NCBI GenBank assembly: GCA_963740905.1
Contig: CAVUFY010000011.1
Span: 22,864-86,863, forward strand
Direction of reading: 5' to 3'
Length of the DNA: 64,000 nt
Origin: an uncultured delta proteobacterium
GTDB taxonomy: Bacteria; Desulfobacterota; DSM-4660; Desulfatiglandales; HGW-15
The translations under genes were made by a program, and so were the position numbers. Shown here in pieces: positions 33,354 through 50,384 of this stretch; position 1 is the first letter of the stretch, and each line of letters starts with the position of its first letter. The notes beneath the pieces are model-generated. The model was given only the letters and a program-made list of their open reading frames with translations, did not search any database and was not told the DNA's origin.

Positions 33354-33369
33354 TGGTATGAGAATTGCT
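33354..33369 (+). promoter_or_regulatory. Sigma54 (-24/-12) promoter of TRAP operon 1
   Basis: TGGTAT-GAGAA-TTGCT (GG-N10-GC), ~55 bp upstream of dctP. Confidence 0.65.
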
Positions 33370-33424
33370 CTGTCCTGGTATCCGAGAACCAGGATTTGCA
33401 ACCAATGATTGGGAGGTTAATACG

Positions 33425-34447
33425 ATGAAAAGAAGTATTTCGGTTCTATGTGTGGCGTGTTTGACGGCGGTTGCGTTCATGATCATGGTATTCCCGTTCA
33501 ACGCGCAAGCCCAGGAGATCAAATTAAGGTACTCGGTCATATGGCCCCAGATGCACCCCATGACCAAATTGATGGTCGAGTGGGGCAAGGATGTTGAAAA
33601 GGTAACCCAGGGCCGGATCAAGACCACTATGTTCGCAAGCAATACCCTTGCCCCTCCGATGCAGGCCTATGATGCCACGGTCAAGGGGATCGTGGATGTG
33701 TGCGGCAACCTGCTGGCTTACTCCCCGGGCCGGCTGCCGCTCTCCGAGGTGTTGCAGCAGCCTCTGGGGTACAAAAACGGTTATCAGGCCAGCAAACTGG
33801 CCAATGCGTACTTTAAGAAATTCAAGCCCAAGGAATTCGACGACGTGAAGGTCATGTACCTCCACGGCGCAGCCCCCGGTTTTATCATGACCAAGAAGGC
33901 GATTAAGACTACGGCCGATATCAAGGGGCTCAGAATCAAGGCCAATGCGGAAAACGCCGACATCGTGAGGAATCTTGGCGCCGCTCCGGTGACCATGCCG
34001 GTCAGCGAGACTTACGATGCCCTTTCGAGAGGCATTGTCGACGGGACCCTTTTCCCCATCGAGGCACTGCAGGGGTTCAAAATCGGTGAAGTGGTCAAGA
34101 CCGTCCTGGAAGATTACGGCATGTCTTACATGACATCGATGTACGTTGCCATGAACAAGGACAAATGGAAGTCGATTTCGCCGGCAGACCAAAAGGCGAT
34201 AGAAAAGATCAATGATGAGTATAACGAGAAAATCGCCAAGCTGTGGGTCGAACTGGATAACAAGGCCAAGGAATTTGCCCTGAGCAAAGGGGTAACCTTC
34301 GTAACCGTCTCCGAGAAAGAACAGGCGGCGACGGCCGAAAAGATGAAACCGATTTGGGATGCTTATGTCAAGATGGCCAAATCCAAGGGACTGCCCGGTG
34401 ATGAGGCCCTGAAATTCTGCCTGGATTATCTAAAGAGCCACCCGTAA
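33425..34447 (+). CDS. dctP: TRAP transporter substrate-binding protein
   Basis: Signal peptide, DIKGLRIKA, LGAAPVTMPVSETYDALSRGIVDG and MNKDKW. Confidence 0.92.
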   Translation: MKRSISVLCVACLTAVAFMIMVFPFNAQAQEIKLRYSVIWPQMHPMTKLMVEWGKDVEKVTQGRIKTTMFASNTLAPPMQAYDATVKGIVDVCGNLLAYSPGRLPLSEVLQQPLGYKNGYQASKLANAYFKKFKPKEFDDVKVMYLHGAAPGFIMTKKAIKTTADIKGLRIKANAENADIVRNLGAAPVTMPVSETYDALSRGIVDGTLFPIEALQGFKIGEVVKTVLEDYGMSYMTSMYVAMNKDKWKSISPADQKAIEKINDEYNEKIAKLWVELDNKAKEFALSKGVTFVTVSEKEQAATAEKMKPIWDAYVKMAKSKGLPGDEALKFCLDYLKSHP

Positions 34448-34607
34448 TTGCCGGGAGGCAAGAACGACGGCTGAGGATGGAGCATGAACTTGCGTCTTCA
34501 GCCGTTGAGCATTTTCTACTCAGCTTTTTTATCGATGGTTCTATGAAGGTTGTCGTGGAGCGCGTTAGAGTCAGATTGTGTGTTCCAGAGAAGTTCGGAG
34601 GGACAGG

Positions 34608-35093
34608 ATGCAGCGCCTGATGGCAGCAGTGCTCAAGGGGGACAAGGTCCTGTACGCGATCGCCGGCATGGTACTGGCGTTCATGATCGTCTTGACCCTT
34701 TGTGATGTGATCTTGAGGAATCTGGGTCATCCGATTACCGGATCCATGGAGATTATCCAGTACGGCGGCTCCATCGTATTTGGTTTTTCCGTCCCTTATG
34801 CCACTTGGATGGGGGCACAGGTCATCGTTGATCTGGTAACCCAGAAGCTGGGCCTCAAGAACCAGAAGAGGATCAAAGCCGTTACCAGGGGCATTGGCAT
34901 CCTCTTGTTCTTGTTCGTGGCATACAATTTCTTTTTGTACGCCCTGGACGTGAAACGGACGGGCGAGCTGACGGCGAGTTTCAAAATTCCCTACTACCCC
35001 TTTTGCTTTGCCATTTCACTCAGTTTTCTGTTCCAGAGCCTGACCATATTTTGTGATCTGATCAAGACCCTGCAGGGAGAAAAACATGAGTGA
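34608..35093 (+). CDS. dctQ: TRAP transporter small permease
   Basis: 4 TM helices, DVILR..PITGSMEI. Confidence 0.88.
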   Translation: MQRLMAAVLKGDKVLYAIAGMVLAFMIVLTLCDVILRNLGHPITGSMEIIQYGGSIVFGFSVPYATWMGAQVIVDLVTQKLGLKNQKRIKAVTRGIGILLFLFVAYNFFLYALDVKRTGELTASFKIPYYPFCFAISLSFLFQSLTIFCDLIKTLQGEKHE

Positions 35094-36390
35094 TATCGCG
35101 GTCGGCGTGTACGGCATAATCGCACTTCTGGGGCTTTTTTTGACAGGGCTCGAAATGGCCTACTGCATGGTGTTGGTGGGTTTTGTCGGATTCACCTTTC
35201 TGATGTCCTTCGGCGCGGCCTCCAACCTGGTGGTCAAGGACTTTTTCGATACCTTTACCACTTACAGTTACACGGTTATCCCCTTGTTCATCATGATGGG
35301 GGAATTGGCCCAGAATTCCAATATTGCCAAGAGGCTCTATGTGGGTGCGCACAAGTGGATCGGACACGTACCGGGCGGTCTGGCCATGACCACCGTAATG
35401 GGCGCAACCGCGTTCAAAGCCATGTGCGGCTCAACCCTCGCAACGGTCGGGACCTTCTCCGGACTGGCCATTCCTGAAATGGACCGCTATGGCTACAAGA
35501 AGGAGCTCTCCGCAGGAACCGTTGCCTCAGTGAGCACCATAGGGATGATCCTGCCGCCCAGCACGGTCCTGATTATATACGGGCTTCAAGTTGAACAATC
35601 CATCGGCCGGCTTTTCCTTGCGGGGATACTTCCGGCACTAATGATAGCGTTGCTTTTCATGGGCGTTATCGCCGGATGGGTCACCTTGCAGCCTGACATT
35701 GCCCCCAGGGCGGAAAGAGCAACCTGGAAAGAGCGGATCTCCGCCATTCCGGATGGAATAGTCATCTTAGTGATTTTCGGCGTCGTGATCGGCGGGATGA
35801 TCACCGGCTTCTTCAGCCCTACCGAGGCGGGCACCATCGGAACGGCCGCCGTTTTTATTCTGGCTTTGGTGAGAAGAGAAATCAATTCCAAGATGCTGGT
35901 GACTTCATTTAGAGGATCATTGAGAACCTCCATCATGACACTCATGCTGATCGCCGGATCTTCCATCTTCGGGCATTTCCTGGCTGTTACCGAGATCCCC
36001 ATGATTGCCGCCGACTGGACCGCCTCCCTTCCTGTGCCGAAATTTCTGATCATGGTCGTCATCATCGCCGTGTACCTGATCGGCGGCTCTATCATGGATG
36101 ATCTGGCCTTCATGGTGCTGGCCACACCGATATTCTATCCGACCGTGGTTAACCTTGGTTATGATCCCATCTGGTTCGGCATTTTGATCTGCATGACCCT
36201 CATGATCGGCGGTATCATTCCCCCCATAGCCATTTATGTGTTTATTTTGGGAAATATTACCGGACTTCCTTTTAAAACCATTTATAAGGGCGTTATACCC
36301 TTTCTTTCAGCCCTGGTTTTAGCTCTGGTGATCATGTTTGTTTTCCCTCACTTTGCGACGTGGCTGCCCAATCAATTAATGGGGAGGTGA
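35086..36390 (+). CDS. dctM: TRAP transporter large permease
   Basis: IPLFIMMG, PGGLA, GMILPPS, SIGRLFLAGILP, SPTEAG and DPIWFG. Confidence 0.93.
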   Translation: MSDIAVGVYGIIALLGLFLTGLEMAYCMVLVGFVGFTFLMSFGAASNLVVKDFFDTFTTYSYTVIPLFIMMGELAQNSNIAKRLYVGAHKWIGHVPGGLAMTTVMGATAFKAMCGSTLATVGTFSGLAIPEMDRYGYKKELSAGTVASVSTIGMILPPSTVLIIYGLQVEQSIGRLFLAGILPALMIALLFMGVIAGWVTLQPDIAPRAERATWKERISAIPDGIVILVIFGVVIGGMITGFFSPTEAGTIGTAAVFILALVRREINSKMLVTSFRGSLRTSIMTLMLIAGSSIFGHFLAVTEIPMIAADWTASLPVPKFLIMVVIIAVYLIGGSIMDDLAFMVLATPIFYPTVVNLGYDPIWFGILICMTLMIGGIIPPIAIYVFILGNITGLPFKTIYKGVIPFLSALVLALVIMFVFPHFATWLPNQLMGR

Positions 36391-36471: not shown

Positions 36472-36503
36472 AAAAGGCGGAATGAATTTTCATTCCGTCT
36501 TTT
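36472..36503. promoter_or_regulatory. Palindrome: terminator after dctM and/or TetR-type operator before the MBL genes
   Basis: AAAAGGCGGAATGAA-TT-TTCATTCCGTCTTTT (15-bp arms, one wobble); TAAAAT at ~36521. Confidence 0.55.
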
Positions 36504-36547: not shown

Positions 36548-37561
36548 ATGGAAGGAAACAGGATAATGATTGAAGAGATACAGCCCGGCTTGTTCCGGGT
36601 GGAAGTCCCTTTACCAAACAGCCCCCTCAAGTTTCTCAACTCTTATGTGGTCGTGTCTTCAGACAGGAATCTGATCATCGACACCGGTCTAAATCGCAAA
36701 GAGTGTTTTGACGCGATGCAGTCTGGTTTGCAGCGGCTCGACATCGATCTTGCGAAGACTGATTTTTTCATCACCCATTTGCATGCCGATCATTTCGGAC
36801 TGTTGTCGAAGCTTGTGACGAAAACCAGCCAGGTATTTTTCAACAGACCCGAAACTGAGTTGATCGAGGCCTCCGGCTGGTGGGAACGCATGGTTGCCTA
36901 CGCGGCCAAAAACGGCTTCCCAGAAAAAGAGCTGCGTGAGGCGATTCAATCCCATCCGGGCCGTCAATTCGGCTCCGAATGGATACCCGAAATGAAGGTT
37001 TTACAGGACGGTGACGAAATTACTGCCGGGAATTATTTTTTTAGGTGTGTTTCCACGCCGGGACATAGCATGGGGCATACTTGTTTGTACGAACCGAACA
37101 GAAAGATCCTTGTGGCGGGAGATCATATTTTGATCGATATTACGCCCAATATTCAATGCTGGTCCGACGAACAAAATCCACTTCGGGATTATCTGGCAAG
37201 TCTGGATAAAGTGAATGATATGGAGATCGCCCTTGTTCTGCCGGGACACAGAAGGCTCATCACCGATCACAGGACGAGAATCGCCGAGTTGAAGGAGCAC
37301 CATGAAAAACGGCTCACAGAGATCCTTTCGATCCTTGGAAATAGTCCGCGAACCGCTTTTGATGTGGCATCTCGAATGACGTGGGATCTCGACTGTGATT
37401 CCTGGGAGGAATTCCCGCGGGCACAGAAGTGGTTTGCCACCGGTGAAGCGATTGCCCATCTGCGTTACCTGGAAAGAAAAGGCTCTATCGTTAGAAAGAA
37501 TGAGGGAACAATGATTGCGTTCACCCTGAATGAGTTATCTCCGCCGGCGCTTCAGCAGTGA
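36548..37561 (+). CDS. MBL-fold metallo-hydrolase (LACTB2-like, with C-terminal winged-helix tail)
   Basis: IDTG, THLHADHFG, TPGHSMGH, GDH, LPGH and GEAIAHLRYL; alternative start at 36566. Confidence 0.9.
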   Translation: MEGNRIMIEEIQPGLFRVEVPLPNSPLKFLNSYVVVSSDRNLIIDTGLNRKECFDAMQSGLQRLDIDLAKTDFFITHLHADHFGLLSKLVTKTSQVFFNRPETELIEASGWWERMVAYAAKNGFPEKELREAIQSHPGRQFGSEWIPEMKVLQDGDEITAGNYFFRCVSTPGHSMGHTCLYEPNRKILVAGDHILIDITPNIQCWSDEQNPLRDYLASLDKVNDMEIALVLPGHRRLITDHRTRIAELKEHHEKRLTEILSILGNSPRTAFDVASRMTWDLDCDSWEEFPRAQKWFATGEAIAHLRYLERKGSIVRKNEGTMIAFTLNELSPPALQQ

Positions 37562-37565
37562 TAAC

Positions 37566-38480
37566 ATGAAGCGCGTGAAGATTACGGAAAAGATTGAATA
37601 TCTGACCCCTGAGAACGCGATCTCCCGGTTCTTATGTTCAGGGATGATCATCAATGACTCGGCAAAGGTATTCTTTGATGCGAATTTCGGCAGGGCCGAT
37701 ACCCGGGCACTGCTCTTATCCGAGAAGCCGGATTTTGCCCTCATCTCTCACTACCACCTGGATCATTCCTGGTGGGGTGGTCTGGCCGGGACCTTTTCCC
37801 ATGCGTCATTGTTCGTGCCCTCCGGTGAAGAGGTTTACCTGATGGACCTCGGCTATTTCCTCGAAATGACCCAGGGGCAAGGTCGTCCGGCCCGGCTCTG
37901 GGCAAAATTTGTCAGTGAGGAAATCCAATACAAGGCGATCGATCATTTCACGCCCTATGATTCGTCCCTGGATCTCGAGCTGAGGGGTGTGAGAATGACA
38001 TTTGTGCCGGCTCAGGGACACTCCCCGGGACATATGGCAGTGTATTTTCCTGACCCGAAAATCCTGTTCACAAGCGACCTGGGGCTCGGGCCTTTCGGCC
38101 CCTGGTACGGATTCAAGGACTGTGACATCACGCTTTACGTGGATTCCCTCCTGAGATTGAAAGGCATGAACCCGCGACTTCTGCTGACAAGTCATGAAGG
38201 TGTCATCAGGAAAGGCATCGATGCCGTTTTCGACCGCTGCATAGCGGCCATTTTCATGAGGGAAGACCTGATCAGCAAAAAACTCGACAAAGGCCTTTCA
38301 AGGGATGAGATCACTGCGGACGGGGTGTATTTTTTGAAAAAAGAAAAGGCCCGGGGTCCTCTAAAAGACTTCCTCACCATGTGGGATGGGGTCATGTTCG
38401 ACCACCACCTGAAAAAGCTCAGAGAAGGCGGGTTGAAAAAGGATTTTCCGCATGATCGAGCACTGGTCGAGCGATTATGA
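37566..38480 (+). CDS. MBL-fold metallo-hydrolase
   Basis: SHYHLDH, GHSPGH, SDLGL..FGPWYG and TSH. Confidence 0.88.
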   Translation: MKRVKITEKIEYLTPENAISRFLCSGMIINDSAKVFFDANFGRADTRALLLSEKPDFALISHYHLDHSWWGGLAGTFSHASLFVPSGEEVYLMDLGYFLEMTQGQGRPARLWAKFVSEEIQYKAIDHFTPYDSSLDLELRGVRMTFVPAQGHSPGHMAVYFPDPKILFTSDLGLGPFGPWYGFKDCDITLYVDSLLRLKGMNPRLLLTSHEGVIRKGIDAVFDRCIAAIFMREDLISKKLDKGLSRDEITADGVYFLKKEKARGPLKDFLTMWDGVMFDHHLKKLREGGLKKDFPHDRALVERL

Positions 38481-38502: not shown

Positions 38503-38937
38503 TTAAAACCTTGAAACAATATAATTGACAATGGATTCTGAAGTGCTCTGGGGCGGAAAAATTTCGGATACCCCCTTTTCCTTTAATTCCTTTACCCGGT
38601 GTTTTGGAATGGTACCTCCGCATATAACACAGATGTCCTCCAGATTGTTCTTCTTCAGGAGGTCCATCAGGTCGCCAATCTGGCCGTAGTTCGATGCGTG
38701 GCTGCTTATCCCGATCACGTCCACGTCCTCTTGAATAGCTGCCTGGACGATCATCTCCGGCGTCTGATAGATTCCGAGATACACCACTTCCATCCCGGCT
38801 TCCATAAGAAACCTGCATACGACTTCAGCACCTGTGCTGTGTCCGTCGAGTCCGATTACGGAAATGAGAACCTTGATTTTCTGCCCTTTGCCCATAATTC
38901 CACACCCTTTGTTTGTTTCACTTCGAAAATCTCTCAT
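38503..38937 (-). CDS. Cobalamin-binding small subunit of an acyl-CoA mutase
   Basis: GLDGHSTGA (DxHxxG), GMEVVYLG..QTPE, IGISS and GGTIP; ATGA overlap with the large subunit (alternative start 38895). Confidence 0.92.
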   Translation of the reverse strand: MRDFRSETNKGCGIMGKGQKIKVLISVIGLDGHSTGAEVVCRFLMEAGMEVVYLGIYQTPEMIVQAAIQEDVDVIGISSHASNYGQIGDLMDLLKKNNLEDICVICGGTIPKHRVKELKEKGVSEIFPPQSTSESIVNYIVSRF

Positions 38938-40553
38938 TCGAAATCAAAGGGACACCCGATCATTTCGAGCGGATCATAACTCAGCCCTCGGGCTTTCCGG
39001 ATCACCCCCATGATTTCACCCGCCGTGGCATAAACCTTGACGGCCTCGATGATGGACGGCATCAGATTATACCTATCTTCCTTCTTTGCATCCGAATAGA
39101 GCTCCGCCATCCTCTTTTCTAATAGAGGCATATTCCGTGTCTTCTTCCACTCTTCCATGCGTCTCGCAATGTCTTCCGAGTCTTCGGCCTGCAGTTCCTG
39201 TATGGGGATCTGATAATCTTCTTCAGGGGGGATGATCAACTCATTGACCCCCACGATCAACCGATCTCCCCTTTCCACCTCTCTGTGTTTTTCCTGGGCC
39301 GACTCCTTCAGCATCTCCTGAATATACCCCTTGTGCACAGCCGCAATCATCCCGCCCAGAGCTTCTATCTTGTTCCAGATCTTATAGGCTTCCTCCTCCA
39401 CCTTGTTGGTCAGGTACTCTACAAAGTAAGAACCTGCGAGAGGATCCGCTACGTCCGTCACCCCGGTCTCATTAGCCACGATGTGCTGGGTATTCAGAGA
39501 CATCCTCGCTGCCAGCGGCGATGGTTCGGCATGAGCATTATCCAGGCACGCATTATCTATGGCCGTGCAACCCGCGATGGCTCCGGCCAGTGTCTGGATA
39601 GCACTTCGTGCGATATTGTTGAGCGGCTGCTGATAGGTCATCGTACGTCCCGATGTGTGGACCGATATGAGTAGATGACAGGACTTTTCCTTTTTGGCCT
39701 TAAACGTCTCCTTGGCCATCTTCGCCCACATCCTTCGAAGCGCCCGGATTTTGGCTATCTCCTCGAAGAAACGGGACCCCACACTTACAAGTTCATAGGG
39801 CAGGAAAGCGACGTCGTCGAAATCAAGGCCTCGCTCATGGACCAACAAGGCGCAGAGTTCCTTGAGCATCGCCATCTCCACAGCGAGCGCCTGTGCATTG
39901 TTGCCGCCGGACTCCTGAAAGTGCTGGCTCAGAATACCCGATCGCATATGTATCTTGTTTCGAACAATGTATTCGGAAGAATCCAGCCATAGTTTTAGAT
40001 CAAGATCCAGAGGCTGAGCGTCTGTCTGCCCGAAGGTGTTGCAGAAGGGATACTCCGTGACGCTGCCGTGCACGTCGTTCAGGTTCACTCCTCGCTTCTC
40101 GGCCAGAGCGACAAGATAGGCCAATCGTACGGAGGACATCGCGCATGAACCTAACAGGGTTATGGATTGTCCGGTCAGGGGAATGCCATCCATGAGTTCC
40201 TCGAATTCGACTAGCGAGGCCCCCGGCCATCCCAAGACCCCTGCCTCTCTTCTGCCGACCGGATGATCGGGATCGATGGGCATCGCATTCGTCCTATCGC
40301 AAATGACCAACATCCCCCCCCTTTGCCCCATCTCCCGGTACCGCTTGAGCACCTCGTTGGTCTGTCTGGAAGATCCGAGCCCGGCGGTCATTCTCCTCGT
40401 CCATATTCGACTGCGGTACCCCTCCGGGTAGTAGCCGCGAGTATAAGGATAGGAACCGGGATCACCCAGGTCTCTCTCGTAGTCGAGGTCCTCAATATCT
40501 TTCGGCGTGTAGACCGACTTGATCGGATGCCCGTAATCAGTCTCCCGTTTCAT
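38934..40553 (-). CDS. Divergent B12-dependent acyl-CoA mutase, large (substrate-binding) subunit
   Basis: PGSYPYTRG, FFEEIAKIRALRRMWA, QQPLNNIAR, ADPLAGSYFVE and IVGVN; active-site residues are non-canonical. Confidence 0.92.
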   Translation of the reverse strand: MKRETDYGHPIKSVYTPKDIEDLDYERDLGDPGSYPYTRGYYPEGYRSRIWTRRMTAGLGSSRQTNEVLKRYREMGQRGGMLVICDRTNAMPIDPDHPVGRREAGVLGWPGASLVEFEELMDGIPLTGQSITLLGSCAMSSVRLAYLVALAEKRGVNLNDVHGSVTEYPFCNTFGQTDAQPLDLDLKLWLDSSEYIVRNKIHMRSGILSQHFQESGGNNAQALAVEMAMLKELCALLVHERGLDFDDVAFLPYELVSVGSRFFEEIAKIRALRRMWAKMAKETFKAKKEKSCHLLISVHTSGRTMTYQQPLNNIARSAIQTLAGAIAGCTAIDNACLDNAHAEPSPLAARMSLNTQHIVANETGVTDVADPLAGSYFVEYLTNKVEEEAYKIWNKIEALGGMIAAVHKGYIQEMLKESAQEKHREVERGDRLIVGVNELIIPPEEDYQIPIQELQAEDSEDIARRMEEWKKTRNMPLLEKRMAELYSDAKKEDRYNLMPSIIEAVKVYATAGEIMGVIRKARGLSYDPLEMIGCPFDFE

Positions 40554-40575
40554 CTTCTCTCCTCTCAGTGAGACG

Positions 40576-40592
40576 ACTGAATCTCATTCAGT
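40576..40592. promoter_or_regulatory. Candidate operator palindrome upstream of the mutase
   Basis: ACTGAAT-CTC-ATTCAGT, ~23 bp upstream of the mutase ATG. Confidence 0.45.
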
Positions 40593-42418: not shown

Positions 42419-43972
42419 ATGAACCTTATTGACGTCGTTGCCAAGTTCGCCCGCATAAGCCCGTCAGGCGCGGCATTCGTCGAGGTTCGCCCCCTTTCGG
42501 GTGTTCGCCAAGAAATCAGCTGGGAGCGGTTCCACGACCGAACCAACAGGATTGCGAACCACCTTCTCCAAAAAGGAGTTCAGAGACAGGACAAGGTTTT
42601 TCTCCTCGGCAGGAATTCGATCCGATGGCTGGAGGCCTACTTTGCGATCCTGAAGACTGGCGCCTGGGCGGTTCCTCTCAACTTCAGATTCACCAACGAG
42701 GATATTCATTATTGCGCCCGTGTCGCGGAACCCTCGGTATTCATCTTCGATGAAGAGTATGCGGCAAGGGTAAACGCTCTTCGCGAAGAGCTTGCCACTG
42801 TCGTCCACTACTGTGTCATAGGACCCGATCGGGCCGACGAATCCGTCACGTTGGAGGATCTCGTCAGGAGCGGCTCGCCGCAATCGGTTCCCGTTGTGCT
42901 TTCGGACGAGGATGAATGTGCTCTCTATTTCACATCAGGCACTACGGGAAAGCCCAAGCCGGTGCTTCTTGGACAAAAAGCTCTCATGAGCGTCGCCGCG
43001 ACCGAGGCCGCAAATCACGGCTTTGTGTCGTCCGACCGGTTTTTGATGATGCCTCCCATGTACCACCTGGCCATCGGTCACCTGTTGGCCGTCATGTTGG
43101 CCGGAGGATGCTCGGTCCTCCTCACGGAAAAAATCTCCCCACGTACCATCGTCGAGACCATAGCCAGAGAGCGCCTATCGGCGGTATTTTTGCTTGTGCC
43201 GTGGGCCGTGGACCTTGTCAACGCCTTTGACAGGGGTGAAGTGAGAATCGAGGAGTACGATCTGAGCTGCTGGCGCCGGACCTTCATGGGAGCTCAACCC
43301 ATACCGCCGGTGGTGGTCCAGCGGATAAAGGGGTACTTCCCTGACATGGAATACGATACCACCTATGGATTAAGTGAAAGCGCCGGGCCCGGGGTCATTC
43401 ATCTGGGGACCGAAAACGAGAGAAAGGTCGGCGCCTTGGGCAAGCCAAGCCTCTTTTGGGACGCAAGAATAGTGGGAGAGAGCGGCGAAGACGTGCCTCG
43501 GGGCGAGGTGGGCGAAATCATCGTAAAGGGCGACGGATTGATGAAAGGATACTACAGGAACCGGGAGCTCACGGAAACCGTGATTCGCGGCGGATGGCTT
43601 CACACCGGTGATCTGGGCAAGATGGATGAGGAGGGGTTCATTTACCTCGTGGACAGGAAAAAGGACATCATCATCAGCGGTGGGGAAAACATCTATCCGG
43701 TGGAACTGGAAGCGGTCATCCTGAAGCACCCCAAGATTCATGATGTGGCGGCAATCGGCGCCCCGGATGACCGCCTGGGAGAGAAAGTGGTGGTGGTCAT
43801 CCAGCCGAAGACAGGCGAAACCTTGACCGAACAGGAGTTGATTCCCTTCTTTGAGCAGCAGTTGCCGCGTTACAAGCGACCGCGACAGGTCATTTTCGAT
43901 GAGGTGCCGAGAAGCCCGACCGGCAAGATCGAGAAGCCTAAGCTTCGGGCGAAGTACTCCGGAAATGCGTGA
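42419..43972 (+). CDS. Acyl-CoA synthetase (class I adenylate-forming)
   Basis: YFTSGTTGKPK, TYGLSE, GWLHTGDLG, DRKKD..SGGENIYP and PTGKI. Confidence 0.93.
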   Translation: MNLIDVVAKFARISPSGAAFVEVRPLSGVRQEISWERFHDRTNRIANHLLQKGVQRQDKVFLLGRNSIRWLEAYFAILKTGAWAVPLNFRFTNEDIHYCARVAEPSVFIFDEEYAARVNALREELATVVHYCVIGPDRADESVTLEDLVRSGSPQSVPVVLSDEDECALYFTSGTTGKPKPVLLGQKALMSVAATEAANHGFVSSDRFLMMPPMYHLAIGHLLAVMLAGGCSVLLTEKISPRTIVETIARERLSAVFLLVPWAVDLVNAFDRGEVRIEEYDLSCWRRTFMGAQPIPPVVVQRIKGYFPDMEYDTTYGLSESAGPGVIHLGTENERKVGALGKPSLFWDARIVGESGEDVPRGEVGEIIVKGDGLMKGYYRNRELTETVIRGGWLHTGDLGKMDEEGFIYLVDRKKDIIISGGENIYPVELEAVILKHPKIHDVAAIGAPDDRLGEKVVVVIQPKTGETLTEQELIPFFEQQLPRYKRPRQVIFDEVPRSPTGKIEKPKLRAKYSGNA

Positions 43973-44025
43973 GTTCCTGAGTAAGAAAGGTCCCCTTCCC
44001 GGGCACTATCCGTTCGAGAGGAAAA

Positions 44026-45681
44026 ATGCCGAGTCTCAAGTCCCATGCTCTCAGTTGCGACGTGTTGGTCATCGGGGGAGGCGGCGCTGCGCTAAGGGCG
44101 GCCATTGCTTGCAGAGAGACGGGAGCGGACGTTCTGGTGGTTTCCAAGACCAGAGTTGGATTCGGAAACAACACCTACCTTTCTAAGGCCTCCTGGGCTG
44201 TTCCCGGCCTTGGAGACCCGGAGGACAGCCACTCGGCACATGTGAAGGACACGCTGGCCGGCGGCCGCTTCCTCAACGATGAAAGAATGGTGGAACGGGT
44301 GGCCCAAGGCGCGCCGCGCCTAATTCCTTTCATGGAGAAGTGCGGCGTGCGTTTTGCAAAAAAGGACGGCCGAATGGTTTTCGACCGTGTTCCCGGACAT
44401 TCCTTCCCCCGCCATGTTCGTGGAGAGAATCGCACCGGGAGCGACCTGATGCTTCCCATCAAGGCGTACGCCACGCGCATCGGGGTTCGCGTCCTCGATA
44501 AGGTCTTCATAACAAGACTCATCCGGCGGAGAGATCAGTTGGCGGCCGCCGCAGGAATCTCTCAGGACGGCGTTTTCCATTCTATCGGATTTCGGTGCGC
44601 CGTGCTGGCCACCGGAGGATATGCCCGGATTTACCTTCACACCAACAATGCACCCGGGATCCAGGGAGACGGCCAGGCCCTTGCCTTTGAGCTGGGAGTG
44701 CCGTTGAAGGATATGGAATTCGTCCAGTTTTACCCCACCGCCATGGGAGAGGGGAGCGCGAGGCTCCTTCTCTATGAGGTGCTGATCTTCCGGGCCGGAG
44801 CGAGGCTCAAGAATGCCTCAGGGGAGGACATCCTGACAAAGCACGGTATGAATGACCCTGACACGCTGACCAGGGACCGTCTGTCGAGGGCCATCATGGA
44901 CGAGATGCGAAAAGGGCTTGGGGTTAAGGGGGGCGTGATCATGGACCTGAGCTCCATCCCGGAAGAAAGGGCGGCACCTTTATCTTCGCTGCTCCCTGCC
45001 GGATGGTCGCCCGATGAAAGAGAATTCATTGTCTCTCCTACGGCCCACTTCTGCATGGGAGGCGTGGTCGTCGATGCGGAGGCCGAGACCGCGATGGCGG
45101 GACTGCTGGCCGCCGGAGAGGTCTGCGCCGGTGTCCACGGCGCCAATCGGCTGGCGGGGAACGCCCTCTCGGAGGTCTTCGTCATGGGTGAGGTGGCAGG
45201 GACAAACGCGGCGCTGAGGTCAAAGGAAACCGCTCCTCCGCAGATTCCCCAGAATGAAGTCCGGGCAGAAAAGATTCGGCTGGAGTCCCTGTTTTCGGAA
45301 GCCGGTGAAGATGCAAAGAAACTCTGCCGCTTGCTCCAGTCGGTGATGTGGGAAAAGGCGGGGATCATCCGGAGCGCCGACAGTCTCAGTATGGCTTTGG
45401 CCCGTATCGAAGAGTTGGAGACCCTGAGCGGGAAATGCAGGGCCGAGAATCCGGTTCAGCTCATGAGGAGGCTTGACCTTCACAATATGTTGCTGGTATC
45501 GAAGATGGTGTGCAAGGCTGCGCTCTATAGAGAAGAGAGCAGGGGTGCTCATTTCCGCAGCGACTTCCCTCAGGAGAGAAACCCCGAATGGCAGAAGAAC
45601 ATTCTCATCCGGAAGGAAAACGGCCGGGAGATGATACTGGAGACCAGAGAGCGTGCGCTCCAGCATAAGAAGGGAGCTTAA
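44026..45681 (+). CDS. Stand-alone SdhA/FrdA/NadB-family flavoprotein
   Basis: IGGGGAAL, GHSFPR, LATGG, DMEFVQFYPT, TRD, AHFCMGG, GVHGANRLAGNAL and REESRGAHFR. Confidence 0.9.
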   Translation: MPSLKSHALSCDVLVIGGGGAALRAAIACRETGADVLVVSKTRVGFGNNTYLSKASWAVPGLGDPEDSHSAHVKDTLAGGRFLNDERMVERVAQGAPRLIPFMEKCGVRFAKKDGRMVFDRVPGHSFPRHVRGENRTGSDLMLPIKAYATRIGVRVLDKVFITRLIRRRDQLAAAAGISQDGVFHSIGFRCAVLATGGYARIYLHTNNAPGIQGDGQALAFELGVPLKDMEFVQFYPTAMGEGSARLLLYEVLIFRAGARLKNASGEDILTKHGMNDPDTLTRDRLSRAIMDEMRKGLGVKGGVIMDLSSIPEERAAPLSSLLPAGWSPDEREFIVSPTAHFCMGGVVVDAEAETAMAGLLAAGEVCAGVHGANRLAGNALSEVFVMGEVAGTNAALRSKETAPPQIPQNEVRAEKIRLESLFSEAGEDAKKLCRLLQSVMWEKAGIIRSADSLSMALARIEELETLSGKCRAENPVQLMRRLDLHNMLLVSKMVCKAALYREESRGAHFRSDFPQERNPEWQKNILIRKENGREMILETRERALQHKKGA

Positions 45682-45688
45682 CACCGCC

Positions 45689-46183
45689 ATGAAAGCGTCC
45701 TTTTTCGAGAAAGCAGTTGTGGGTTTTAGTTCTGTGTTCAATATGGTAGCATCCGTTTCGCTTGTAGGCATGATGCTGTTGACCTGCCTCGATGTTTTCA
45801 TGAGATATTTTTTCAGCAGTCCTCTTACCGGAACTTATGACATTGTAAGCCTTCTGGGGGCAATCCTAGCCGCTTTTGCCATGCCTTACACAATGCTGAA
45901 AAGGGGGCACGTGGCCGTCGAGATTCTGGTACAAAGCTTATCAAGGGGGAAGCAACTCACCATCGAGACTTTTACTCATCTCCTGGGCATTTCACTTTTT
46001 CTCGTGATGGTCTGGCAGGCTCTTCTTCTCTCCGCGGATATGAAGGCGGTCGGCGAGGTGACGCCGACCTTGCTTCTCCCCTTCTATCCCATCCTGGACT
46101 GCATGGCTGTTTGTTTTTTGGGTCTTTGCCTCGCCATTCTGGTCGATCTTATCCACATTTGGACGAAGAGAGTAAATCCATGA
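45689..46183 (+). CDS. dctQ: TRAP transporter small permease
   Basis: DVFMRY..PLTGTYDIV..GHVAVE; 4 TM helices. Confidence 0.9.
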   Translation: MKASFFEKAVVGFSSVFNMVASVSLVGMMLLTCLDVFMRYFFSSPLTGTYDIVSLLGAILAAFAMPYTMLKRGHVAVEILVQSLSRGKQLTIETFTHLLGISLFLVMVWQALLLSADMKAVGEVTPTLLLPFYPILDCMAVCFLGLCLAILVDLIHIWTKRVNP

Positions 46184-47484
46184 ATCCAATACACATCGGC
46201 ATCATCGGCGTCGTCTTCCTCATTGTTCTCCTGTTTTCGAAGTTTCCTGTGGCCTTCTGCATGGCTCTCGTAGGTCTTTTGGGCTTTGGGTATCTGGTGT
46301 CGCCCGCGGCGGCTCTCAATATCATCATCAAGGATTTCTATACGGTATTCAGTTCCTACGACCTGACCGTCGTTCCCCTGTTTGTCTTCATGGGGCAGAT
46401 TCTCTTCTACTCCGGAATCAGTCGCAAGCTTTACGATGCCGCCTTTACCTGGTTCGGGCATTACAAGGGCGGCCTTGCCATGGCAACGGTCGGAGCCTGT
46501 GCCGGGTTTTCCGCCATCTGCGGTTCTACGAATGCGACGGCGGCAACCATGGCCTCCGTCGCTCTGCCTGAGATGAAGCGGCTCCACTATCGTGACGAAC
46601 TTGCCGCAGGAGTGGTGGCGGCCGGGGGAAGCCTGGGCATTCTCATTCCACCCAGTGTGATCTTTATCGTCTACGGTATCATGACCGAGCAATCCATAGG
46701 AAAGCTCTTCATGGCAGGGATCCTTCCCGGAATCCTTCTTTCCTTGCTTTTCATCCTGACCATCTATATTTGGGTTTCCTTGCGACCCGACATAGCGCCT
46801 CGCGTAGAAAAGCAGAGTTTCAGGACGCGGATAAGGTCTCTTGCCGGTCTTGTTGAAATACTTCTTCTGTTCATTTTGGTTATGGGGGGACTCTTCATCG
46901 GTATTTTCACGCCCACCGAAGCAGGGGCCGTAGGCGCATTAGGGGGGGTTCTCATTCCTCTTGTAGGCAGAAGCCTTTCATGGAAAGGTTTTCTGCAGGG
47001 ACTGTATTCTTCGACGCGAACCACCTGTATGATTTTAATGATCGTCGCAGGAGCAACGGTCTTCGGACACTTCCTGGCGGTGACCACCATCCCCAGCACC
47101 CTGTCCACCTGGGTAGCAGGCCTGCCACTTCCTTCCTGGGGCATCATGCTTGTGATCATGCTCTTCTTTCTCCTGGGGGGATGTTTTATGGACGCCTTGG
47201 GCATGATCCTGTTGACCATTCCCATATTCTATCCCGTAGCCATGGCTATCGGCTATGACCCGATATGGTTCGGCGTGGTGATTGTGCTCGTGACCGAACT
47301 GGGTGTGATCACACCGCCGGTCGGCATCAATGTCTATGTGGTCAGCGGGATCGCCAGGGATATACCGCTGGAAGTCATCTTCAAAGGGGCTTTTCCGTTT
47401 GTACTGACCTTGGTCACGTATCTTGTGATCATGACAATTTTTCCCCAAATCGCTCTGTTTCTTCCGAGTTTTGTGGCCCGTTGA
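46180..47484 (+). CDS. dctM: TRAP transporter large permease
   Basis: VPLFVFMG, GSLGILIPPS, TPTEAG and ITPPVG; ATGA overlap with dctQ. Confidence 0.93.
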   Translation: MNPIHIGIIGVVFLIVLLFSKFPVAFCMALVGLLGFGYLVSPAAALNIIIKDFYTVFSSYDLTVVPLFVFMGQILFYSGISRKLYDAAFTWFGHYKGGLAMATVGACAGFSAICGSTNATAATMASVALPEMKRLHYRDELAAGVVAAGGSLGILIPPSVIFIVYGIMTEQSIGKLFMAGILPGILLSLLFILTIYIWVSLRPDIAPRVEKQSFRTRIRSLAGLVEILLLFILVMGGLFIGIFTPTEAGAVGALGGVLIPLVGRSLSWKGFLQGLYSSTRTTCMILMIVAGATVFGHFLAVTTIPSTLSTWVAGLPLPSWGIMLVIMLFFLLGGCFMDALGMILLTIPIFYPVAMAIGYDPIWFGVVIVLVTELGVITPPVGINVYVVSGIARDIPLEVIFKGAFPFVLTLVTYLVIMTIFPQIALFLPSFVAR

Positions 47485-47612
47485 TTTCATTTCTGTGACC
47501 GGCTACTGAACAAGATTACCGAAGGGACTTTCAACCCGAACGGTTTTCACAGCGGGTGAAAAAAGTGGGGGTTGTTGGCAACACAAACACCAAACAAATA
47601 GGAGGCAGCAAA

Positions 47613-48650
47613 ATGAAGAAAGGTATGATTGTGGCGAGTCTGTTTTTCATCGGAGCATTCTTTTTTTCCACGGCCATCTCCGTTACACCGGTAGGAGCGG
47701 CAACCTACAGCTTCACTTACAGCACCTTCTTCCCGCCAACTCACATTCAGACGAAGGTCCCCGAAGCTTGGGCCAAGGAGATCGAAAAACTTTCCAAAGG
47801 TCAGATCAAGATACAGATATTCACCGGAGGGTCTTTGACTCCGGCTCCACAGATCTACGACGGAGTCGTCAAAGGCATCTCGGATTTCGGCTTGTCCGTT
47901 TTCGCCTATTCTCCGGGGCGGTTCCCCGTCGTATCGGCGGTTGACAATCCCTTCGGCTACCCCAACGCCTTTGTTGCGACAAGGGTTATCAATGAGCTCA
48001 ACAGAAAATTTCATCCCAAGGAGCTGAGCGATGTTCACGTCTGCTACCTTTTCGCCCATGGCCCCGGCGTGCTCCACACGGCAAGCAAACCGGTCAGGAC
48101 GCTGGAGGAGGTGAAGGGGTTGAAGATCCGGTCGACCGGAACAAGCCAGTTGATCGTCAGGGCATTCGGAGCCGTCCCCGTGGCCATGTCCCAGGGTGAA
48201 ACCTATGACGCGCTTAAGAAGAACATCGTGGACGGCACCCTGTCCCCCATAGAAACGCTGGAGGGTTTCAAGCAGGCCGAGGTGCTCAAGTATACCACAC
48301 TGGACTACAGCGCCTCCTATTCTCAGGGATTCTTCGTCGTAATGAACCTCAAGAAATGGAACAGCCTTCCGCCCGACCTCCAGAAGATCATCACCGAGGT
48401 GAGCAAAAAATACGAAGACATCACGGCTAAGGCATGGGGGGAAAGCGATGAATCGGGGCGAAAATTCGCCCTGAAGCTGGGCCATGAATTCATTAAACTG
48501 TCTGACGAGGAATCCGCGAAGTTCAAAGCAGCCGTGAAGCCGGTCTTCGAAGAGTATATCAAGCAGGCGAACGCGAAGGGCGTTGACGGGGAAGCCGTGT
48601 TCAAGGCAGCGCAGGAAATGGTTGAAAAATACAGCAAGGAATATAAATAG
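47613..48650 (+). CDS. dctP: TRAP transporter substrate-binding protein
   Basis: SD AGGAGG, signal peptide, KGLKIRS, ETYDALKKNIVDG and VMNLKKW. Confidence 0.92.
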   Translation: MKKGMIVASLFFIGAFFFSTAISVTPVGAATYSFTYSTFFPPTHIQTKVPEAWAKEIEKLSKGQIKIQIFTGGSLTPAPQIYDGVVKGISDFGLSVFAYSPGRFPVVSAVDNPFGYPNAFVATRVINELNRKFHPKELSDVHVCYLFAHGPGVLHTASKPVRTLEEVKGLKIRSTGTSQLIVRAFGAVPVAMSQGETYDALKKNIVDGTLSPIETLEGFKQAEVLKYTTLDYSASYSQGFFVVMNLKKWNSLPPDLQKIITEVSKKYEDITAKAWGESDESGRKFALKLGHEFIKLSDEESAKFKAAVKPVFEEYIKQANAKGVDGEAVFKAAQEMVEKYSKEYK

Positions 48651-48839
48651 CACTTGTTCTTTTGATGGGTAGTCCGAGAAAGGCACGCGGTACAGGGCGC
48701 ACGGCAGGTGGCCCACGAAAAACGATTCCTCTTTTCCCTGTACCGTGCGCCTTGAGCCGTGTACTATTTCGAGACCACACCTTCGGCCTGGCTGGCATCC
48801 CTTTTGGTTGAGGCCGAAGGCTTCGATGGAAGGAGAGTC

Positions 48840-50384
48840 ATGATCATCGGCGATCTGTTGGTGAGAAACGCGAACAAATTCCCCCACAAACCGGCAGTTA
48901 TCTCCGAAACGCGCTCCCTGACCTTTCGAGAGTTGAACGACCGGGTGAACCGGCTGGCCAATTCGCTCCTGGATTCAGGGTTGAGGAAAGGGGACCGAAT
49001 CGGCGTTCTGGTGCACAATTGCCACCAGTTTGTCGAACTGTATTTTGCGTCGGCCAAGACGGGCGCGGTTTTCTGCCCCTATAATAATCACTTCAAACAA
49101 TCGGAGTTGAAGGACATTATTGATTACTCGACTCCGAAATTCCTTGTCGCGGACAGTGATTTCCTCGAGATGATGCGCGCTCTGGAGCCGGACTTGAACT
49201 CGGTGAGGAAATATATCTGTCTGGAAAAGACCTCCCTTCCTTTTATGGACGACTACGAGACCTTGATTGCCATCGGACGCGCAGAGGAACCGAACGCAAG
49301 AGTGGTGGAAGACGACGTGTTGAGCATCGTCTTCACGGGAGGCACCACAGGAAAACCAAAGGGCGCGATGAGGACCCACCGGCATCTTGTGTCGGATGCG
49401 GTTGCAGGGGTCATTGAATTGAAGGTCGGGTACGACGAGAGGGTCCTGATCACCTTTCCCATGTATCATGTTGCCTGCGAAGACAACATCGTACGCCACT
49501 CCTTCATGCCGAATACCCTTTACATCCGGCGTGAGGGCGCATTTAACCCCGAACAGGTTCTCGATTACATTTCGAGAGAGCGGATATCGCGATGCCAGTT
49601 TGTACCGACCATGATCCACAGCCTCATCCAGGTTCCGGATGTGGACAAATATGACTTGAGCAGTCTGCGCCTGATCATTTATGCCGCGTCTGTCATGCCC
49701 GTTGAACTCCTGAAAAAGGCCTTGGCAATTTTTCCATGCGGTTTTGCTCAGCTTTACGGTCAGACGGAGAGCGGCCCCCTTACCTCCGTGCTTAAGCCGG
49801 AAGACCATGTTCTTGACGGGTCTGCAAAATGTCTCGCAAGGCTCGCTTCGTGTGGAAAACCCGTGATCAACTACGAGATAAGAGTTGTGGACGAAGATGA
49901 TCACGACGTCCCGATCGGGGAGGTGGGCGAGATCATAGGCCGCAGTGAAGCCATGATGATGGGATACTGGCAAATGCCTGAACAAACCGCAAAGAAGCTA
50001 AAGAACGGATGGCTCCACACGGGTGATCTGGGAAGGTTGGACGAGGACGGTTACGTTTACGTGGTAGAGAGAAAGGACGACCTGATCATTTCCGGGGGTG
50101 TCAATGTTTATCCCCGTGAGATTGAAGAGGTCCTTTACGGGCATCCTGCTGTCTCGGAGGCCTCCGTTATAGGCTTGCCCGACGAGCATTGGGGAGAGGT
50201 TGTGAAGGCAGTCATTGTCCCGAAGGAAGGCGTCGACGTCACGGAGAGAGACATCATCGAGTTTTGCGGCAGAAACCTCGCAGGGTTCAAGAAGCCGAAA
50301 AGCGTAGACTTCTGGAAAGAGTTGCCCAAGAGTCCGCAGGGAAAGATCCTCAAGAAGGAAATCCGCAAGCATTATGGATCTTAG
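48840..50384 (+). CDS. Acyl-CoA synthetase (long-chain-fatty-acid--CoA ligase family)
   Basis: FTGGTTGKPKG, YGQTE, GWLHTGDLG, SGGVNVYP and PQGKI. Confidence 0.93.
   Translation: MIIGDLLVRNANKFPHKPAVISETRSLTFRELNDRVNRLANSLLDSGLRKGDRIGVLVHNCHQFVELYFASAKTGAVFCPYNNHFKQSELKDIIDYSTPKFLVADSDFLEMMRALEPDLNSVRKYICLEKTSLPFMDDYETLIAIGRAEEPNARVVEDDVLSIVFTGGTTGKPKGAMRTHRHLVSDAVAGVIELKVGYDERVLITFPMYHVACEDNIVRHSFMPNTLYIRREGAFNPEQVLDYISRERISRCQFVPTMIHSLIQVPDVDKYDLSSLRLIIYAASVMPVELLKKALAIFPCGFAQLYGQTESGPLTSVLKPEDHVLDGSAKCLARLASCGKPVINYEIRVVDEDDHDVPIGEVGEIIGRSEAMMMGYWQMPEQTAKKLKNGWLHTGDLGRLDEDGYVYVVERKDDLIISGGVNVYPREIEEVLYGHPAVSEASVIGLPDEHWGEVVKAVIVPKEGVDVTERDIIEFCGRNLAGFKKPKSVDFWKELPKSPQGKILKKEIRKHYGS

Follow-up and report, generated by a model that had tools for sequence, protein, structure and literature searches.

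We analysed a stretch of 64,000 nucleotides (nt; "the window") from contig CAVUFY010000011.1 of an uncultured delta proteobacterium (assembly GCA_963740905.1, labelled G000 below), and we report here on its positions 33,354 to 50,384, where a series of genes surrounds the two subunits of an adenosylcobalamin (B12)-dependent acyl-CoA mutase. Genes were called from a listing of open reading frames (ORFs) together with Pfam and NCBIfam profile scans of the window proteins. All the genes named in an earlier reading of this DNA ("the original prediction") were found: the mutase pair, an MmgE/PrpD-family protein ("PrpD-like"), two acyl-CoA ligases (Lig1 and Lig2), a flavoprotein resembling FrdA and NadB ("FrdA-like"), two transporters of the tripartite ATP-independent periplasmic (TRAP) type and two metallo-beta-lactamase (MBL)-fold hydrolases. 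A core of these genes is conserved in other genomes, the relatives share an operator, the substrate pocket of the mutase is rewritten, and the gene set parallels the post-activation genes of anaerobic alkane degradation.

The mutase genes lie on the minus strand and overlap by 4 nt. The small, B12-binding subunit (144 amino acids, aa; 38503-38937; PF02310, 75 bits) scores 114.5 bits against TIGR00640 (cut-off 57.45), and the large, substrate- and CoA-binding subunit (539 aa; 38934-40553) scores 417 bits against PF01642 (cut-off 22) and 359 bits against TIGR00641 (cut-off 304). Across a divergent promoter region of 467 bp (40554-41020), an operon on the plus strand encodes the PrpD-like protein (456 aa; 41021-42391; PF03972, 180 bits; PF19305, 97 bits), the AMP-forming ligase Lig1 (517 aa; 42419-43972; PF00501, 232 bits), the FrdA-like flavoprotein (551 aa; 44026-45681; PF00890, FAD_binding_2, 197 bits; PF02910, Succ_DH_flav_C, 75 bits) and TRAP-2 (DctQ2, DctM2 and DctP2; 45653-48650; Pfam, 83, 350 and 174 bits). 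The likely starts of the transporter genes are at 45689, 46180 and 47613, the last with a signal peptide; with the likely DctQ2 and DctM2 starts, the gaps within the operon are 27, 53 and about 7 nt, followed by a 4-nt overlap. The PrpD-like ORF was listed from 40865, but the start is probably ATG 41021, which gives a protein of 456 aa as in relatives, because homology to these relatives begins only at residue 48-53 and this ATG comes after the stretch GGAAGGAAG.

A conserved gene set around the mutase

A scan with one genome per species returned 28 loci whose mutase is 69-90% identical to that of the window, along with 16 ordinary methylmalonyl-CoA mutase (MCM)-like loci at 31-37%. When the window proteins were run by tblastn against the 28 clade-mutase loci, PrpD-like orthologues were found at seven (L001, L002, L003, L010, L022, L023, and L027), Lig1 orthologues at eight (L002, L003, L004, L007, L010, L021, L022, and L027), and TRAP-2 orthologues, 70-88% identical, at five (L002, L003, L004, L007, and L027). 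The FrdA-like gene had orthologues at L002 and L003 only, and it is an accessory of the module. Orthologues of MBL1, MBL2, TRAP-1, and Lig2 were found at none of the 28 loci; matches to these proteins were at the level of paralogues (22-46%), those of TRAP-1 being 28-46% identical and those of Lig2, which fell on the Lig1 gene, 22-33%. Absences from the 28 loci are soft, as several of the contigs are short. At many loci, a Lig1 orthologue is the neighbor of the PrpD-like gene.

In a survey of 209 genomes of the window's class, the clade mutase (E <= 1e-150) was present in 16, with a PrpD-like orthologue within 4 kb in 10 of the 16. Two others (G047 and G147) have the mutase at a contig end and the PrpD-like orthologue on a separate contig, and in G044, G003, G070, and G093 no PrpD-like orthologue was found with the window query. 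MBL1 orthologues are present in 65 of the 209 genomes, and they were on a different contig from the mutase in all six genomes compared (G175, G157, G059, G062, G045, and G108); neither MBL2 nor TRAP-1 was found in flanks of about 1-1.5 kb on each side of MBL1 at 7/7 loci. The position of the MBL genes is occupied in relatives by a TetR gene.

Only the mutase pair and the operon of PrpD-like, Lig1, FrdA-like, and TRAP-2 genes recur together, and we therefore take 38503-48650 (about 10 kb) as the functional unit; TRAP-1, both MBL hydrolases, and Lig2 are neighbors outside the pathway. The original prediction had treated the 17 kb as a single island whose genes would co-occur in other genomes. 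One acquired 17-kb block was not confirmed, since synteny elsewhere is limited to these 10 kb and about half of the stretch is the conserved gene set, while co-occurrence held for the core and not for TRAP-1, the MBL genes, or Lig2. The G+C content of the genes (0.47-0.60) straddles the window mean of 0.545, and no mobile-element genes were seen in the Pfam results for the stretch and its flanks.

One could still propose that the whole 17 kb encodes one pathway, in which TRAP-1, the MBL proteins acting as thioesterase or lactonase, the mutase, the divergent operon, and Lig2 all take part. The genes are contiguous, Lig2 is co-directional with the operon, and other MBL-fold genes lie near the module at L018 and L022. 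In an RNA library (X9), contigs 97-98% identical to the window lie on the PrpD-like gene, the PrpD-like/Lig1 junction (42105-42462), TRAP-2, and Lig2, and also over part of TRAP-1/MBL1; none lies on the mutase genes. These are assembled contigs only, which cannot show absence, level, strand, transcription, or a single transcript; those on the divergent operon also speak weakly for the smaller unit. Set against these points are the 0/28 count, the separation of MBL1 from the mutase contig and from MBL2 and TRAP-1, the TetR gene found where the window has MBL genes, and a strong hairpin between TRAP-1 and MBL1 (36472-36503; 14-bp stem, T tracts on both strands) that is likely a terminator, although sigma-70 and terminator scans were overall not above shuffles. 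We regard a single 17-kb pathway as very improbable.

In gene maps based on Pfam, the usual additions in relatives are a TetR gene (11 loci) and the chaperone MeaB (9 loci). An ATP:corrinoid adenosyltransferase is added at L049, L050, L085, and L087, and an enoyl-CoA hydratase (ECH) lies within the operon at L010, L050, L060, and L085. The genes are arranged divergently or as a single operon (e.g., L010, L023, L050, and L085), and the fullest module, L085, reads TetR / MutL-MutS-MeaB-Lig1-PrpD-like-ECH-DctP-DctM-CobA. At L004 a DUF3237 gene stands at the FrdA-like position, and at L053 an old-yellow-enzyme (OYE) reductase adjoins the module in place of the FrdA-like gene. No MeaB, adenosyltransferase, ECH, or TetR gene was found at the window locus; a genome-wide search for the adenosyltransferase was not made. 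Pfam detected no epimerase, MeaB, PrpB, or PrpC in the window, as originally stated; MeaB genes lie on contigs C9 and C5 of the same genome, and a glyoxalase-type epimerase is also encoded outside the window. The best TetR relative in this genome is 25% identical, and there is no close orthologue.

The window's intergenic region can be aligned with those of L001, L002, and L022, and the predicted mutase promoter on the minus strand (-35 TTGACA at 40663-40658, TATTAAT at 40638-40632) is conserved with relatives. The promoter regions of eight clade loci (L001, L002, L004, L005, L022, L027, L028, and L049) contain the palindrome ACCGAC-NA-GTCGGT, which occurs twice in L001, L005, L022, L027, and L028. 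In L001, L022, and L027, which bear a PrpD-like gene, one copy lies near each divergent promoter. This is the pattern of one repressor over both operons, and it lends indirect support to co-regulation. Downstream of the mutase small subunit, at a distance of about 0.7-0.8 kb, L002 and L027 have an extra copy; in L002 it is immediately upstream of the TetR gene, and in L027 no TetR gene was called. The palindrome is also present in L058, where the mutase is of another clade, which suggests a related effector.

No exact copy of this palindrome was found in the window, and matches with three mismatches were at chance level (14 versus 13.8 expected). The window has instead a perfect 16-nt palindrome, CCGACCCATGGGTCGG, at 40758-40773, with the same half-sites as the relatives' operator and a spacer of 6 rather than 2 nt; the relatives' TetR-type operator is degenerate here. 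An inverted repeat, CTGAAT-CTC-ATTCAG, lies at 40577-40591 and precedes the mutase start codon by 24-38 nt; it is not kept in the aligned relatives. Between 32000 and 52500, Rfam matched no RNA family, riboswitches included.

The mutase and its partner enzymes

Both mutase subunits passed the cut-offs for the adenosylcobalamin acyl-CoA mutase superfamily, and the small subunit has the DxHxxG (His-on) motif as DGHSTG at residues 31-36. In NCBIfam the large subunit passed the generic acyl-CoA mutase model and no equivalog model: it scored 275 bits against the MCM equivalog NF006944 (cut-off 876) and 103 bits against the IcmF model (cut-off 1500), with 88 bits to the IcmF-type structure 4xc6, a low similarity that bears on a possible identity as pivalyl-CoA mutase. 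Its nearest solved relatives are 2-hydroxyisobutyryl-CoA mutase (HCM; 4r3u, 261 bits) and human MCM (224 bits), both about 35% identical. The best 120 matches in a large protein collection were all at least 77% identical. The clade is tight, with members 69-94% identical across several phyla, and uncultured bacteria of sulfate-reducer-like and syntrophic kinds carry it in abundance. In the labels of sequencing runs, habitat words such as wetland, marsh, soil, and sediment reach shares of at most 0.24. A quick maximum-likelihood tree of 38 rows, in which the joins of long branches are unsure, set off the 23 clade members by a branch with 1.95 changes per site (Shimodaira-Hasegawa-like approximate likelihood ratio test, SH-aLRT, 100), with short internal branches. 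In the subclade that includes the window (12 rows, SH-aLRT 99), a PrpD-like gene lies beside the mutase in 9/12, compared to 0/11 for the remaining rows.

To name pocket residues we use the numbering of P. shermanii MCM, in which Tyr89, Arg207, and Tyr243-His244 make up the MCM signature and the first two, together with Tyr243, hold the free carboxylate of succinyl-type substrates. Every clade member has RMTAGLG in place of the canonical RQ(Y/F)AGF, VI(C/S/H/A/G)DR in place of (A/T)FD(L/M)PT, SQH or GQH in place of GYH, and HTSGR in place of QT(A/S)G(C/W/S). The canonical TIQNDILKE...R becomes (variable)(E/S)(Y/S)P(F/Y)...(F/Y)GQ in the clade; the window segment, SVTEYPFCNTFGQ, has no basic residue. 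Tyr89 is accordingly Thr, Arg207 is Gln or Gly, and Tyr243-His244 is Gln-His, with His244 kept, so that the MCM signature is absent. Two new invariant arginines (in VICDR and HTSGR) lie in pocket-forming segments. Among the five other mutases of the window genome, which were compared with this one, four are of the Tyr/Arg type and keep Tyr/Arg/Tyr-His, and one is of the Phe/Gln type.

Other specificity signatures did not fit either. If the positions that define isobutyryl-CoA mutase (ICM) are Phe and Gln, as we assume, the window mutase lacks this signature, having Thr instead of Phe; the Phe/Gln pair is found in the C9 paralogue. The determinants of HCM, which we take to be Ile90 and Asp117 (RQIAG and STDFD in 4r3u), align with Thr and Ile. 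The HCM proteins HcmA and HcmB do resemble the window system in their split subunits, in Gln at the Arg207 position, and in the combination of ligase and mutase (with a G-protein chaperone in relatives). They differ in that identity is only about 35%, the TIQxDILKE segment is SVTEYPFCN in the window, and the two new arginines are found in the window. HCM is linked with a 2-hydroxyisobutyryl-CoA ligase and MeaH in Aquincola tertiaricarbonis, and we know of no PrpD partner for it. The original description of an atypical B12 mutase is thus confirmed by the missed equivalog models, the rewritten pocket, and the long branch: judged by its residues, the pocket matches none of the specificity signatures compared, and the enzyme appears to be of a so far uncharacterised type. 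We found no description of the clade's activity in the open full-text literature, although subscription papers and unseen supplements may hold one.

A second atypical mutase clade occurs beside PrpD-like, Lig1, and TetR orthologues at L053:3837-5474, L058:5520-7166, and L059:1518-3182. These mutases are 31-32% identical to that of the window and have RRQQSG (Tyr89 to Gln), no Arg207, and Asn at His244; loss of His244 is, to our knowledge, unusual within the family. Their PrpD-like and Lig1 neighbors are 51-64% identical to those of the window. At L046 a PrpD-like orthologue (46%) lies beside a third mutase type, which keeps Tyr89 and Arg207. In genomes of family f51, with mutases 41-42% identical, no PrpD or radical enzyme was seen alongside in the stretches fetched.

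The window genome has six acyl-CoA mutase pairs, five of them outside the window, on C4, C6, C8, C9, and C23 (loci L062-L066). The C8 pair is MCM-like and lies with a glyoxalase-type epimerase, a carboxyl transferase, a thiolase, and a ligase, the ICM-like C9 pair lies with MeaB, the C4 pair by an OAD-beta decarboxylase subunit, and the C23 pair with a ligase and ChsH2/thiolase-like genes.

The PrpD-like protein is not PrpD, since it scored 33.5 and 30.8 bits against the PrpD equivalogs (cut-offs 575 and 458). Its relatives in the PDB are cis-aconitate decarboxylase (CAD; 6r6u group, 105 bits), iminodisuccinate (IDS) epimerase (2hp0, 102 bits), and PrpD (47 bits), and the ESM Atlas returned generic MmgE/PrpD clusters only. 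We take the active site of CAD to comprise Asp93, Thr97, His103, His159, Lys207, Lys272, His277, and Tyr318. Four of the eight are kept (Asp93, His103, Lys272, and Tyr318), and positions 97, 159, 207, and 277 are Ala, Asp, Leu/Val, and Cys. In a survey of 25 subfamily members (46-100% identical), the equivalents of Asp93 and His103, the Asp at position 159, and the Cys at position 277 were invariant (25/25), Lys at position 207 was found in 0/25, and position 97 was Ala in 18, Gly in 5, Ser in 1, and His in 1. The TKP(L/M)H motif is replaced by (S/A)(V/I)R(V/I/L)(I/G)(Q/E), with Arg in 24/25 and Thr in 1/25. A role as CAD is weakened by the loss of half of these residues. The Cys, on the other hand, is common to IDS epimerase (WPSC against YPSC), and an invariant Lys...Ser-Cys motif is shared with that enzyme in addition to the fold family and the four CAD residues. 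We propose that the protein may be an epimerase or isomerase of the free acid or of its CoA ester.

Elsewhere, at L047 (G004:C2:120000-130749), a PrpD-like orthologue (53%) lies beside a glycyl radical enzyme and its activase, with a BbsA-like protein and subunits of a 2-oxoacid:ferredoxin oxidoreductase. The radical enzyme was considered as an X-succinate synthase and rejected, as it is of the PFL2/dehydratase type. In the window genome, G000:C14:72537-89607 (L067) holds five MmgE/PrpD paralogues in 17 kb, 26-28% identical to the one in the window.

Lig1 was matched best by PRK06187 in NCBIfam (417 bits, under the cut-off of 476). The FrdA-like protein missed every NCBIfam cut-off (TfrA, 382 against 718 bits; NadB, TIGR00551, 307 against 453; TIGR01812, 319 against 567). 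It has the FAD_binding_2 and C-terminal domains of TfrA and NadB and keeps the HxxMGG His and NRLG Arg, which presumably bind substrate carboxylate. Unlike in those enzymes, Asn stands at the position of the covalent-FAD His and Tyr at that of the QFHPT His, and the catalytic-loop Arg is shifted by one alignment position. No Fe-S or TfrB partner gene lies beside the FrdA-like gene, the next gene being DctQ2, and the protein matches neither L-aspartate oxidase NadB nor the flavoprotein of a membrane-complex fumarate reductase or succinate dehydrogenase. It could be an enoate reductase acting on a substituted fumarate. All three components of both TRAP sets exceeded the Pfam cut-offs, and both DctP proteins are nearest in the PDB to 4n6d and a group of TRAP binding proteins.

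Proposed substrate class and pathway

The closest parallel in architecture is found in the islands of alkylsuccinate synthase (ass) and its (1-methylalkyl)succinate synthase (mas) counterpart. In the passages cited here, ass cluster 1 of Desulfoglaeba alkanexedens is described with large and small mutase subunits, an LAO/AO ATPase, and an MmgE/PrpD protein (PMC7180275), and the islands of Desulfatibacillum AK-01 and Smithella with the same ancillary genes, the mutase being the candidate for skeleton rearrangement (PMC13685792). Taken together, these passages give an ancillary set of acyl-CoA mutase subunits, MeaB/ArgK, MmgE/PrpD, an AssK-type ligase, an enoyl-CoA hydratase, and a carboxyl transferase, and they assign no function to the PrpD protein (PMC7180275, PMC13685792). 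Two loci in our set show this layout: L100 reads carboxyl transferase ... MutS-MutL-MeaB-PrpD-activase-glycyl radical enzyme, and L099 is alike. The L100 radical enzyme scored 1250 bits to PDB 9o8u, "1-methyl alkyl succinate synthase subunit MasD".

The window shares with the islands the protein families, the adjacent mutase and PrpD genes, the Lys...Ser-Cys motif of the PrpD proteins, and the role proposed for the genes, in which a substituted succinate is converted to its CoA ester and its carbon skeleton is then rearranged. In contrast to them, it has no glycyl radical enzyme, has a TRAP importer instead, and adds the FrdA-like reductase. The L099 and L100 mutases are 28-30% identical to that of the window, too distant to place it in their clade, and they keep the Tyr/Arg/Tyr-His that it has lost; the island PrpD is about 28% identical and keeps His and Lys where the window protein has Asp and Val/Leu. 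The window module therefore follows the same plan as the islands but does not belong to their protein families. It is a variant of systems already known, namely catabolic modules that combine a ligase with a B12 mutase and the accessory set of the ass islands. The pathway had originally been called a candidate for an undescribed one; from the passages cited, the same kind of gene set is in print as ass-island ancillary genes (PMC7180275, PMC13685792), and it is the protein clades that differ.

Another system with a TRAP binding protein and a ligase in the mutase operon is that of anaerobic indoleacetate degradation, for which the cited paper describes IaaGH as a mutase for (2-aminophenyl)succinyl-CoA, of the phenylsuccinyl-/benzylmalonyl-CoA mutase kind, and an electron transfer flavoprotein (ETF) added to the iaa operon in strict anaerobes (PMC8360864). 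We rejected this identity for the window mutase, as an iaa-like operon with another paralogue is present at G000:C6. That operon encodes a CoA-transferase III, ETF alpha and beta, an acyl-CoA dehydrogenase, a GntR regulator, the mutase, DctP/M, a PaaK-like ligase, and a xanthine dehydrogenase FAD subunit, and its mutase keeps Tyr/Arg and is 31-32% identical to that of the window. Pfam showed no iaa-type genes near the window mutase. In five Burkholderiales-type genomes compared, no co-located hydantoinase-mutase pair (iaa operon) was seen. A separate observation concerns L089 (G720:C170:4359-18991), where a cassette pairing an 800-aa glycyl radical enzyme with an acyl-CoA dehydrogenase is present three times in tandem, accompanied by an activase and an enoyl-CoA hydratase; the genomes in the family of L089 (2-3 Mb) gave 20-38 mutase candidates each at first look.

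From these comparisons we propose, with roughly even confidence, that the conserved genes couple uptake to the CoA activation, stereochemical editing, and de-branching of an alpha-branched acid, whether of the 2-substituted succinate type or another. The accessory genes of the alkylsuccinate synthase islands suggest, by analogy, that the substrate would most likely be a 2-substituted succinate of the alkyl-, aryl-, or methylsuccinate type. The carboxylic acid would be imported by TRAP-2 and converted to its CoA thioester by Lig1. The PrpD-like protein would adjust stereochemistry or the position of a double bond, a role suggested by the Lys...Ser-Cys motif in common with IDS epimerase, which epimerises a 2-substituted succinate. 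The mutase would then move the thioester carbon to the adjacent carbon, turning a branched skeleton into one open to decarboxylation or beta-oxidation, and the FrdA-like protein may provide an optional entry by reducing an unsaturated (fumarate- or itaconate-type) analogue. The order of the steps, the roles of the PrpD-like and FrdA-like proteins, and the substrate class are what we infer. The originally proposed scheme, in which a branched, cyclic, or unsaturated acid undergoes uptake, CoA activation, and B12-dependent de-branching, distinct from the methylmalonyl-CoA and methylcitrate pathways, fits the conserved core; it does not extend to TRAP-1, the MBL proteins, or Lig2.

Several observations weigh against a succinate-type substrate. 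The mutases of the alkylsuccinate islands and the iaa paralogue keep Tyr89, Arg207, and Tyr243, all of which are lost in the window mutase, and its Arg207 position is Gln/Gly, as in mutases for carboxylate-free substrates. Loss of Arg207 and Tyr89 is the chief argument here, and it keeps a carboxylate-free alternative alive. The likeness to the islands is one of architecture and not of orthology, given the 28-30% identity of mutase and PrpD. Two pocket positions of the PrpD-like subfamily (His to Asp and Lys to Val/Leu) set it apart from CAD as well as from IDS epimerase, and the module has no decarboxylase. The closest PDB relatives of Lig1 are FadD13 and feruloyl-CoA synthetase (about 246 bits), with 4-coumarate ligase also near, that is, enzymes for hydrophobic or aromatic monocarboxylates. 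The ligands of the DctP proteins' nearest PDB relatives are probably aromatic acids. Other mutase subclades, finally, sit with PaaK-like ligases and benzoyl-CoA-reductase-like genes.

Another possibility, then, is that the same architecture serves a substrate without a free carboxylate, such as an alpha-branched or tertiary monocarboxylate of the 2-aryl-/2-alkylpropionate, 2-hydroxyisobutyrate, pivalate, or alicyclic type. The mutase would work in the manner of isobutyryl-, 2-hydroxyisobutyryl-, or pivalyl-CoA mutase; racemising or hydrating the acid would fall to the PrpD-like protein, and reducing a 2-substituted acrylate to the FrdA-like or OYE protein. Gln/Gly at Arg207 and the loss of Tyr89 and Tyr243 suggest a larger, less polar pocket, the nearest solved mutase is HCM, and the affinities of Lig1 point the same way. 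In the wider clade, the neighbors include Liv-type ABC importers in addition to the PaaK-like ligases and benzoyl-CoA-reductase-like proteins, and the acyl-CoA dehydrogenases are nearest to cyclohexanecarboxyl-CoA dehydrogenase; at L051 an indolepyruvate oxidoreductase adjoins the PrpD-like and Lig1 genes. An enoyl-CoA hydratase after the mutase would suit a 3-hydroxyacyl-CoA product. However, a purely hydrophobic substrate would sit oddly with the two new pocket arginines, and Thr and Ile replace the HCM determinants. The FrdA-like protein retains binding residues of the dicarboxylate type, and Tyr89 and Arg207 are kept in the L046-type mutase, whose neighbor is a PrpD-like orthologue. All the characterised MmgE/PrpD enzymes that we know of act on di- or tricarboxylates. 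We hold this alternative to be possible but somewhat unlikely.

It could also be speculated that the module is a C5/C6 route, in which the PrpD-like protein forms itaconate as a cis-aconitate decarboxylase, or isomerises or hydrates mesaconate, citraconate, or itaconate. The FrdA-like protein would then produce methylsuccinate, Lig1 would activate it, and the mutase would act as a reverse ethylmalonyl-CoA mutase or convert citramalyl-CoA to 3-hydroxyglutaryl-CoA. CAD is the nearest solved relative of the PrpD-like protein, and the FrdA-like protein is a fumarate-reductase-type flavoprotein; the chemistry is simple, its products enter central metabolism, and it would explain why no further genes are present at L002 and L003. 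We nevertheless judge this route improbable, as the substitutions at CAD positions 159, 207, and 277 hold across the 25 members, the FrdA-like gene is missing from most modules, and Lig1 and DctP2 are unlike known enzymes or binders of small di- and tricarboxylates. The mutase also lacks Arg207 and Tyr89, which ethylmalonyl-CoA mutase presumably keeps.

Substrate specificity is known for few B12 acyl-CoA mutases, and every newly found one has led to a pathway (ethylmalonyl-CoA, 2-hydroxyisobutyrate, pivalate, and indoleacetate). An epimerase has been postulated for anaerobic alkane degradation, and a PrpD-family protein is a candidate for it. The partnership of mutase and PrpD-like protein parallels the unexplained PrpD gene of the alkane-activation islands, and solving one could assign both. 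The answer would also tell whether the free alkyl- and arylsuccinates that serve as markers of anaerobic hydrocarbon decay in the field are traded as a substrate in their own right. More tentatively, and beyond what we would bet on, the mutase clade may represent a new substrate-specificity class and MmgE/PrpD proteins general epimerase partners which, with an importer, make up a widespread "scavenger" module for sediment anaerobes, at least three unrelated mutase clades having been recruited to a PrpD/ligase/TetR chassis. Such a module would consume substituted succinates released by hydrocarbon-activating neighbors, or related branched acids.

Neighboring genes in the window

TRAP-1 (33365-36390, plus strand; DctP 156, DctQ 55, DctM 292 bits in Pfam) comprises DctP1, with a likely start at ATG 33425 and a signal peptide, DctQ1 (34578-35093), and DctM1 (35086-36390). 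About 55 nt ahead of the likely DctP1 start is a sigma54-like -24/-12 motif, TGGTAT-N5-TTGCT (TGGTATGAGAATTGCT; 33354-33369, plus strand), with two mismatches to what we take to be the consensus. Motifs of this quality number 26 in the window compared to 27.4 expected from shuffles, and Pfam found no adjoining gene for an enhancer-binding protein in the window.

The overlapping genes MBL1 (36548-37561) and MBL2 (37530-38480), also on the plus strand, scored 65 and 58 bits against Lactamase_B, and both proteins have an intact HxHxDH motif (HLHADH and HYHLDH). Lig2 (541 aa; 48759-50384, plus strand; PRK06187, 507 bits, cut-off 476) follows DctP2 after a gap of 108 nt, and downstream of it MotA/MotB lie on the opposite strand.

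The rest of the window encodes hydrogenase, NADH-dehydrogenase-like, histidine kinase, SUF, and LarA-like proteins (Pfam), a content that, with the nearest relatives, indicates an anaerobe of Desulfobacterota type. Directly upstream of TRAP-1, at 31868-33083, are two ORFs without Pfam matches (145 aa, minus strand; 140 aa, plus strand). A row at 17320-24966 consists of a NiFe-hydrogenase large-subunit-like gene, Oxidored_q6, a 691-aa molybdopterin/Fe-S protein, and a 1132-aa NuoF-like/GltD-like fusion, with several genes for histidine kinases and response regulators on its flanks.

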